Part shown: in pieces, positions 59,150 through 59,976 of the stretch
Numbering within the stretch: position 1 is the stretch's first letter
How the letters are laid out: the number at the start of each line of letters is the position of its first letter
Source: Escherichia coli
Lineage (GTDB): Bacteria > Pseudomonadota > Gammaproteobacteria > Enterobacterales > Enterobacteriaceae
NCBI RefSeq assembly: GCF_003334405.1
Contig: NZ_QOWM01000004.1
Reading direction: 5' to 3' (one strand)
Length of the DNA stretch: 64,000 bases
Position numbers and translations under genes: made by a program
Notes under the pieces: model-generated
What the model was told of the DNA's origin: nothing
Database searches by the model: none
Seen by the model: the letters and a program-made list of their open reading frames with translations, nothing else

Positions 59150-59976
59150 GAAGATTCTTCTGGCTGGTCGCTGCCGCTCTGTTATTGGCAGGGTGTGCAG
59201 GCGAAAAAGGCATTGTCGAGAAAGAGGGATATCAGCTTGATACCCGACGCCAGGCGCAGGCGGCGTATCCGCGCATTAAAGTGCTGGTGATCCACTACAC
59301 CGCAGATGATTTTGATAGCTCGCTGGCGACACTGACCGATAAGCAGGTCAGCTCGCATTATCTGGTCCCTGCGGTACCACCGCGATACAACGGTAAACCG
59401 CGCATCTGGCAACTGGTGCCGGAACAAGAACTGGCCTGGCATGCGGGGATTAGCGCCTGGCGCGGGGCAACGCGCCTTAACGACACCTCTATTGGCATTG
59501 AGCTGGAAAACCGTGGCTGGCAAAAATCGGCCGGAGTGAAATATTTTGCCCCGTTTGAACCGGCACAGATTCAGGCGCTTATTCCACTGGCGAAAGATAT
59601 TATTGCCCGTTATCACATCAAGCCGGAAAACGTAGTGGCACATGCGGATATCGCACCGCAGCGCAAAGACGATCCGGGGCCATTATTTCCCTGGCAGCAA
59701 CTGGCGCAGCAGGGGATTGGTGCCTGGCCGGATGCGCAGCGGGTTAACTTTTACCTTGCCGGGCGCGCGCCGCACACACCGGTAGATACCGCGTCATTGC
59801 TGGAGCTTTTGGCGCGCTACGGTTATGACGTTAAACCTGATATGACACCGCGCGAGCAGCGGCGCGTGATTATGGCATTCCAGATGCATTTCCGCCCGAC
59901 GTTATATAACGGCGAAGCGGATGCAGAAACTCAGGCGATTGCCGAAGCATTGCTGGAGAAATACGGGCAGGATTAG
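59146..59976 (+). CDS. amiD: N-acetylmuramoyl-L-alanine amidase AmiD (lipoprotein, amidase_2 type)
   Basis: ORF track 59146..59976, 276 aa, lipobox LLAGC; start overlaps the ybjQ stop (ATGA). Confidence 0.92.

Follow-up and report, generated by a model that had tools for sequence, protein, structure and literature searches.

The amiD/ybjS stop-codon overlap of Escherichia coli as a probable case of ordinary tail-to-tail packing of convergent genes

Overlaps between convergent genes were reportedly surveyed by Rogozin 2002, Fukuda 2003 and Johnson & Chisholm 2004. In a subsequent survey, the four strings CTAA, TTAA, CTAG and TTAG were named, 4 bp was found to be the modal overlap length, and 58 convergent overlaps were counted in E. 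coli, with a predicted rho-independent terminator in just 23 of the 116 genes involved (Lillo & Krakauer, 2007, PMC2174442). The overlap of amiD and ybjS is an exact member of this class of 4-bp tail-to-tail overlaps, since its stop codons share TA at the modal length, and it does not differ in this respect from the E. coli members, which usually have no predicted rho-independent terminator. What is added here to that survey is the lineage detail for one pair, with all four tetramers found among amiD/ybjS orthologues. A second related arrangement is the co-directional ATGA overlap, exemplified by ybjQ/amiD at positions 59146-59149 of the window, i.e., the whole stretch of 64,000 nucleotides of E. 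coli DNA that was analyzed. ATGA overlaps have the same length as the YTAR tetramers of convergent genes and a similar cause in the interlocking of codons. However, their genes lie on the same strand and coupled translation is known for them, whereas convergent YTAR overlaps cannot couple translation.

At the level of transcription, Rho-dependent termination of antisense RNA is said to have been described by Peters et al. 2012. In E. coli, Rho was shown to terminate 3' read-through and antisense RNA (PMC7815308), and the amiD/ybjS regions are antisense in both directions, like those of many convergent junctions; at amiD/ybjS the regions are defined through sensitivity to bicyclomycin and not through site-resolved 3' ends, rut sites or NusG dependence. 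Convergent excludons constitute another neighboring class, in which amiD-ybjS and yliI-gstB are both named (Sanmartin et al., 2025, Table 1, PMC12288877). The excludon concept implies reciprocal repression, whereas overlapping transcripts are the sole ground for the membership of amiD-ybjS. Finally, overlapping bidirectional terminators (10.1101/2022.10.23.513370) likewise concern convergent genes whose 3' ends necessarily overlap. They are hairpin-based and Rho-independent, whereas no hairpin was found at amiD/ybjS and Rho sensitivity is reported there. Collision-driven overlapping bidirectional terminators of convergent genes were reportedly also described by Ju et al. 2019, using SEnd-seq. 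Set against these systems, amiD/ybjS is probably an ordinary minimal tail-to-tail overlap of two real, unrelated genes, the overlap of their transcripts being a by-product that is limited by Rho.

Gene identity and geometry of the junction

The original prediction had placed a TTAG stop-codon overlap between two convergent genes, amiD and ybjS. The sequence and the list of open reading frames (ORFs) confirmed this placement to the base (Table 1), and the identity and convergence of the two genes were upheld by the ORFs and by RefSeq annotation. Indeed, both were recognized as genuine protein-coding genes, arranged tail to tail on the two strands, from ORFs, RefSeq annotation in three strains and family matches, residues 1-334 of YbjS being covered by many matches to extended-SDR/epimerase families. 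The mechanical ORF of ybjS extends over 59973..61049, up to a TTG at 61049, whereas annotation places the start at the ATG at 60986. Positions 845768..909767 of K-12 MG1655 are collinear with the window, with 10 mismatches. In the RefSeq annotation of that strain, amiD (904913..905743, +) and ybjS (905740..906753, -) show the identical 4-nt overlap, which is also annotated in strain E2865 and in a strain just 91.6% identical over the probe used to compare the junction. The likeness to yliI/gstB that had been pointed out is real as well: these genes also share a TTAG in the window, in agreement with the K-12 annotation, where yliI (878742..879857) and gstB (879854..880480) overlap by 4 nt.

Table 1. 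Positions in the window of the genes, overlaps and putative read-through tracts discussed in the text.
Feature	Position	Strand	Basis
amiD, N-acetylmuramoyl-L-alanine amidase D, lipoprotein	59146..59976	+	ORF, RefSeq, AmpD-like amidase domain match
ybjS, putative NAD-dependent epimerase/dehydratase, extended SDR	59973..60986	-	ORF, RefSeq, SDR/epimerase matches
amiD/ybjS 4-nt overlap, TTAG	59973..59976	both	Sequence and enumeration of allowed strings
yliI (+)/gstB (-) overlap, TTAG	34087..34090	both	K-12 annotation, window sequence
Putative tract of read-through from amiD, antisense to ybjS (3' third)	59977..60351	+	Published Rho region center
Putative ybjS read-through tract, antisense to amiD	59322..59972	-	Published Rho region center

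At the junction, the + strand reads ...CAG GAT TAG CGC GGC..., with CAG GAT TAG at 59968-59976. The amiD stop is the TAG at 59974-59976 (+) and the ybjS stop is the TAA complementary to TTA at 59973-59975, so that the TA at 59974-59975 is common to both stop codons and forms the central TA of the YTAR class. The two outer bases belong to sense codons of the partner genes: T59973 is the third base of GAT, the last sense codon of amiD, and G59976 pairs with the third base of CGC, the last sense codon of ybjS. Read as its reverse complement, TTAG is CTAA. When the stop codons of the + strand were enumerated against the reverse-complemented stops of the - strand, convergent overlaps of 1, 2, 3 and 5 nt proved impossible. 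Hence, 4 nt is the minimal convergent overlap and the sole one below 6 nt, and the same enumeration allows it solely as CTAA, CTAG, TTAA or TTAG. The absence of room for an intergenic terminator, also part of the original prediction, holds by this geometry.

Mis-annotated 3' extensions can create convergent overlaps, and one of the two stops might accordingly not be a real protein end. The likelihood of such an artefact is virtually nil. A stop codon, unlike a start codon, is not a matter of prediction, and the C-termini are kept in orthologues. The junction was compared at 80 loci, one genome per species, retrieved with AmiD as query and with both stops located, or at 82 loci if the window and an additional strain of E. 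coli are counted. By tblastn, the AmiD alignment reached residue 274-276 of 276 at 82/82 loci, and in intact orthologues that of YbjS ran to the final residue or stopped no more than 4 residues before it. The artefact was rejected on these grounds, as the C-termini align to the last residues down to 73% (AmiD) and 82% (YbjS) identity and species with a spacer end alike. Both proteins end at the same residues throughout the loci, with spacer or overlap; therefore, neither stop is an annotation artefact.

The frequency of such junctions was also considered. In the K-12 stretch matching the window there are 12 convergent junctions, two of which are -4 overlaps, the other 10 having spacers of 19-240 nt. 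E. coli has roughly 650 convergent pairs. With 58 overlaps among these ~650 pairs, about one is expected in 12 junctions and finding two is thus unremarkable. The amiD/ybjS overlap is not more than chance or geometry gives; it is already annotated, already catalogued and of the commonest class of convergent overlap. YTAR overlaps of convergent genes are therefore best regarded as background in genome scans, not worth flagging, and interest in the present one would rise only with demonstrated regulation of amiD or ybjS by the overlap.

At the other end of amiD, ybjQ (58826..59149) overlaps the gene in the same direction through the ATGA mentioned above, in which the stop TGA interlocks with the start ATG. 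Overlaps thus lie at both ends of amiD, ATGA at its start and TTAG at its end, and translational coupling of amiD to ybjQ is probable.

Transcript ends around the junction

The genes are not separated by a spacer, so that neither of their transcripts ends between them. Published data point to termination by Rho further downstream, within the partner gene. Rho termination regions were determined by Adams et al. (2021, PMC7815308; Supplementary file 2) using DirectRNA-seq with and without bicyclomycin. On the + strand, a region antisense to ybjS lies at K-12 906118 (Rho score 4.27, significance 4.9e-6), i.e., window position 60351, 375 nt past the amiD stop; on the - strand, a region antisense to amiD lies at K-12 905089 (Rho score 3.90, significance 2.6e-10), i.e., window position 59322, 651 nt past the ybjS stop; as these scores come from 800-nt windows, a single experiment with and without bicyclomycin and modest numbers of reads (65/26 against 31/53), they place the points of termination imprecisely. 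According to these values, RNA on both strands is sensitive to bicyclomycin, as expected from Rho termination. The base composition downstream of the stops, where C exceeds G, is suggestive of a Rho-loading (rut) feature: on the + strand the C/G ratio was 1.3-1.5 in 78-nt windows starting 26-65 nt after the amiD stop, and on the - strand it was 1.47 immediately past the ybjS stop and 1.4-1.9 starting ~690 nt downstream, all of these being moderate values and raw ratios only. Neither amiD nor ybjS has a curated Term-seq 3' end under three growth conditions (Supplementary files 1 and 3, PMC7815308). This fits the instability known for ends generated by Rho, low expression being an alternative reason.

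The strand-specific RNA-seq check that had been put forward for this junction is, in effect, already published, in the form of a transcript overlap and of antisense Rho regions on both strands (PMC12288877, PMC7815308). The pairs amiD-ybjS and yliI-gstB are among 165 convergent transcript overlaps present in half or more of 58 RNA-seq samples from MG1655 (ExcludonFinder, Table 1, PMC12288877), and overlapping transcripts, as an excludon has them, are thus on record for amiD-ybjS. Such a call is almost automatic for overlapping coding sequences with co-expression and is hence weak evidence on the extent of read-through. Besides, Rho regions inside the convergent partner are also listed for ompX/opgE, ybiT/ybiU, fsaA/moeB, mdfA/ybjH and rcdA/rybB, and on both strands for dacC/deoR, which has a 46-nt spacer (PMC7815308). 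For yliI/gstB, a Rho region antisense to yliI is listed at K-12 879406 (-), with a score of 3.76, and none antisense to gstB on the + strand (PMC7815308). The spacer-less amiD/ybjS does not behave unlike neighboring convergent pairs with a spacer.

Rho loads on untranslated RNA. The two genes would have been packed until their stop codons interlocked on the shared TA. At each stop, the ribosome would leave and RNA polymerase would run on into the partner gene, producing an untranslated antisense RNA that Rho would stop a few hundred bases further on. The 3' overlap of the transcripts would then be a by-product of the layout, as it would be at most convergent junctions in the window, with or without a spacer. 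We infer that the Rho-terminated antisense RNAs start at the neighbor's own promoter, which for the + strand is the ybjQ-amiD promoter, and the overlap itself appears to have no selected regulatory role. Internal promoters of the partner gene could alternatively supply the antisense RNA, in part or in place of read-through. A second textbook point is illustrated by this pair, namely that spacer-less convergent E. coli genes appear to rely on Rho inside the neighbor and not on a terminator of their own.

An intrinsic terminator situated inside the partner coding sequence, near the junction, would provide each mRNA with an end of another kind. A consensus scan of positions 58000-63000 returned weak terminator-like sites, the nearest on the + strand being that at 59994-60011, with a 5-bp stem followed by AGTTTTCTCG (AGUUUUCUCG), with others at 60122-60137 (+) and 59245-59227 (-). 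Terminators of this type are also predicted inside the partner for ~20% of the genes in E. coli convergent overlaps (PMC2174442), and TransTermHP overlapping terminators are predicted for 146 of the 165 excludons as a class (PMC12288877). However, the 7 sites found, all weak, are not more numerous than in shuffled sequence (5.4 +/- 2.8), their stems are short, their U-tracts comprise just 4 U, and the sole - strand candidate lies ~730 nt past the ybjS stop. Folding of the 151 nt that follow each stop, and of shorter segments, gave z values of -0.62, -0.02, -0.27, -1.44 and -0.57, none of them notable and none indicating a fold more stable than shuffles; no hairpin with a U-tract that would qualify as an intrinsic terminator was found downstream of the stops. 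A stable 3' end, as an intrinsic terminator would leave, is likewise not found among the curated Term-seq ends of the two genes, for which low expression is a possible reason, and the read-through is bicyclomycin-sensitive on both strands (PMC7815308). Intrinsic termination inside the partner is therefore very unlikely here.

Two convergent genes with zero spacing also bring to mind termination by collision, in which converging polymerases pause at a hairpin in the junction and dislodge each other, and hundreds of convergent genes in E. coli are reported to be under the control of collision-type terminators (Wang et al., 2022, 10.1101/2022.10.23.513370). The model needs a stem-loop in the overlap region, whereas no inverted repeat was found at 59950-60020 and the local fold is not significant (z = -0.27). 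A search against Rfam on either strand at a permissive threshold likewise gave two sub-threshold chance matches, none at the junction or near the gathering score. Moreover, collision terminators are Rho-independent (10.1101/2022.10.23.513370), whereas amiD/ybjS is bicyclomycin-sensitive on both strands. This makes collision highly improbable at amiD/ybjS, and termination of read-through by Rho the preferred reading.

Two observations were made in the vicinity. An exact 12-nt direct repeat, GCGGCAGTTTTC, occurs at 59978-59989 and 60007-60018, with a spacing of 29 nt, both copies falling within the 15 final codons of ybjS. At the protein level it corresponds to ...EKTAA... and ...GKLPR*, and chance is its probable origin. 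Further away, a published Rho region antisense to ybjT is located at K-12 908096 (+), i.e., window position 62329, with a score of 9.02, which implies + strand antisense transcription well beyond ybjS.

Variation of the junction and its possible regulatory role

Within the species, the junction is nearly universal. A 1.1-kb probe across it matched 5424 of 5426 complete E. coli genomes, and the 60-nt junction was full-length in the same proportion (5424/5426). The sampled E. coli variants of the junction, with 98.3%, 96.7% and 88.3% identity, all carry TTAG with both genes annotated, and TTAG was found in every E. coli and Escherichia sequence read. Across Enterobacteriaceae, the -4 overlap was present at 27 of the 82 loci, in Escherichia, most Citrobacter, Salmonella enterica diarizonae and Klebsiella, in the form of TTAA (15 loci), TTAG (10), CTAG (1) or CTAA (1). 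The genes are separated by 0 to +7 nt at 12 loci (Lelliottia, Kluyvera, Raoultella and some Enterobacter), by 18-35 nt at 5, by 47-158 nt at 10, including three Citrobacter with REP-like palindromic inserts at the junction, and by more than 400 nt at 12, those of Kosakonia having a 194-aa ORF between them. At the remaining 16 loci, ybjS is absent from the flank, the flanks of two being too short to judge.

This distribution can be related to the coding constraints at the tetramer. NNY codon pairs are always synonymous. A transition at position 1 (T/C) would exchange TAA and TAG in ybjS and be a silent third-base change of an NNY codon in amiD, and a transition at position 4 (G/A) would exchange TAA and TAG in amiD and be a silent third-position pyrimidine change in ybjS. 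Since the flanking transitions are silent in the partner gene, the four YTAR variants are mutually reachable with both proteins unaltered. A mutation of the central TA would instead destroy both stops at once, and the state would thus be readily maintained, with point mutation a costly way out of it. The presence of all four YTAR variants among the orthologues fits this neutral picture, and the insertions in other lineages indicate that the overlap as such is dispensable. Hence, amiD/ybjS may serve as a textbook case, 4 nt being the characteristic convergent overlap and its four variants being linked by doubly silent changes.

A regulatory role would nevertheless be conceivable if amiD/ybjS acted as a functional convergent excludon, with mutually exclusive expression brought about by read-through interference or by RNase III cleavage of the duplex. 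The pair belongs to the E. coli "excludome" and synteny is higher for excludon pairs as a class (PMC12288877), which leaves room for selection on the arrangement; besides, the -4 junction does not vary among the sequences read from E. coli and Escherichia and reappears in four genera. Transcription of ybjS that carries on from the ybjT region upstream would be a possible route. In the 98-nt ybjT-ybjS spacer (60987-61084), the consensus scan gave no - strand terminator-like site, and ybjS may therefore, judging from this sequence, be co-transcribed with ybjT. However, validation by p19 capture of double-stranded RNA is not feasible for convergent excludons in general (PMC12288877), and no functional link between AmiD and YbjS emerged from the analysis. 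Relatives tolerate REP-like inserts (100-113 nt), spacers measuring 18-158 nt, an additional gene of 194 aa or the loss of the ybjS neighbor, and the conservation of the -4 state is explained without regulatory selection, both stops needing the central TA. A functional excludon is thus rather unlikely. It is also unlikely, in the more specific form of the proposal, that Rho-limited ybjS read-through lowers AmiD expression under some condition, and the reverse, and that the -4 junction is partly kept for this purpose in Escherichia, Salmonella, Citrobacter and Klebsiella.

Several features of individual loci deserve mention. In three Citrobacter spp., REP/BIME-like palindromes (...GCCTGATGGCGCTTCGCTTATCAGGCCTAC...) of 100-113 nt are placed exactly between the amiD and ybjS stops (L011, 3332-3444; L015, 3332-3431; L018, 3332-3436), where sister Citrobacter species show the -4 overlap. 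The insert of L018 contains the 14-nt inverted pair CTTATCAGGCCTAC / GTAGGCCGGATAAG. In Kosakonia pseudosacchari (L032, 3305-3889), the 194-aa ORF between amiD and ybjS is on the + strand and has an apparent signal peptide; a similar intervening ORF occurs in L033, L034, L038, L040-L042, L057 and L060. Since the stop of the Kosakonia ORF is just 5 nt from that of ybjS, ybjS is again without an intergenic terminator. Lastly, ybjS is in two pieces in Citrobacter amalonaticus AUH_CA_2023_1 (L013, 3331-4345), with an out-of-frame overlap near residue 180 and a TTAG junction, and in Trabulsiella odontotermitis (L067), with residues 204-240 missing; these split genes may be pseudogenes or assembly errors.
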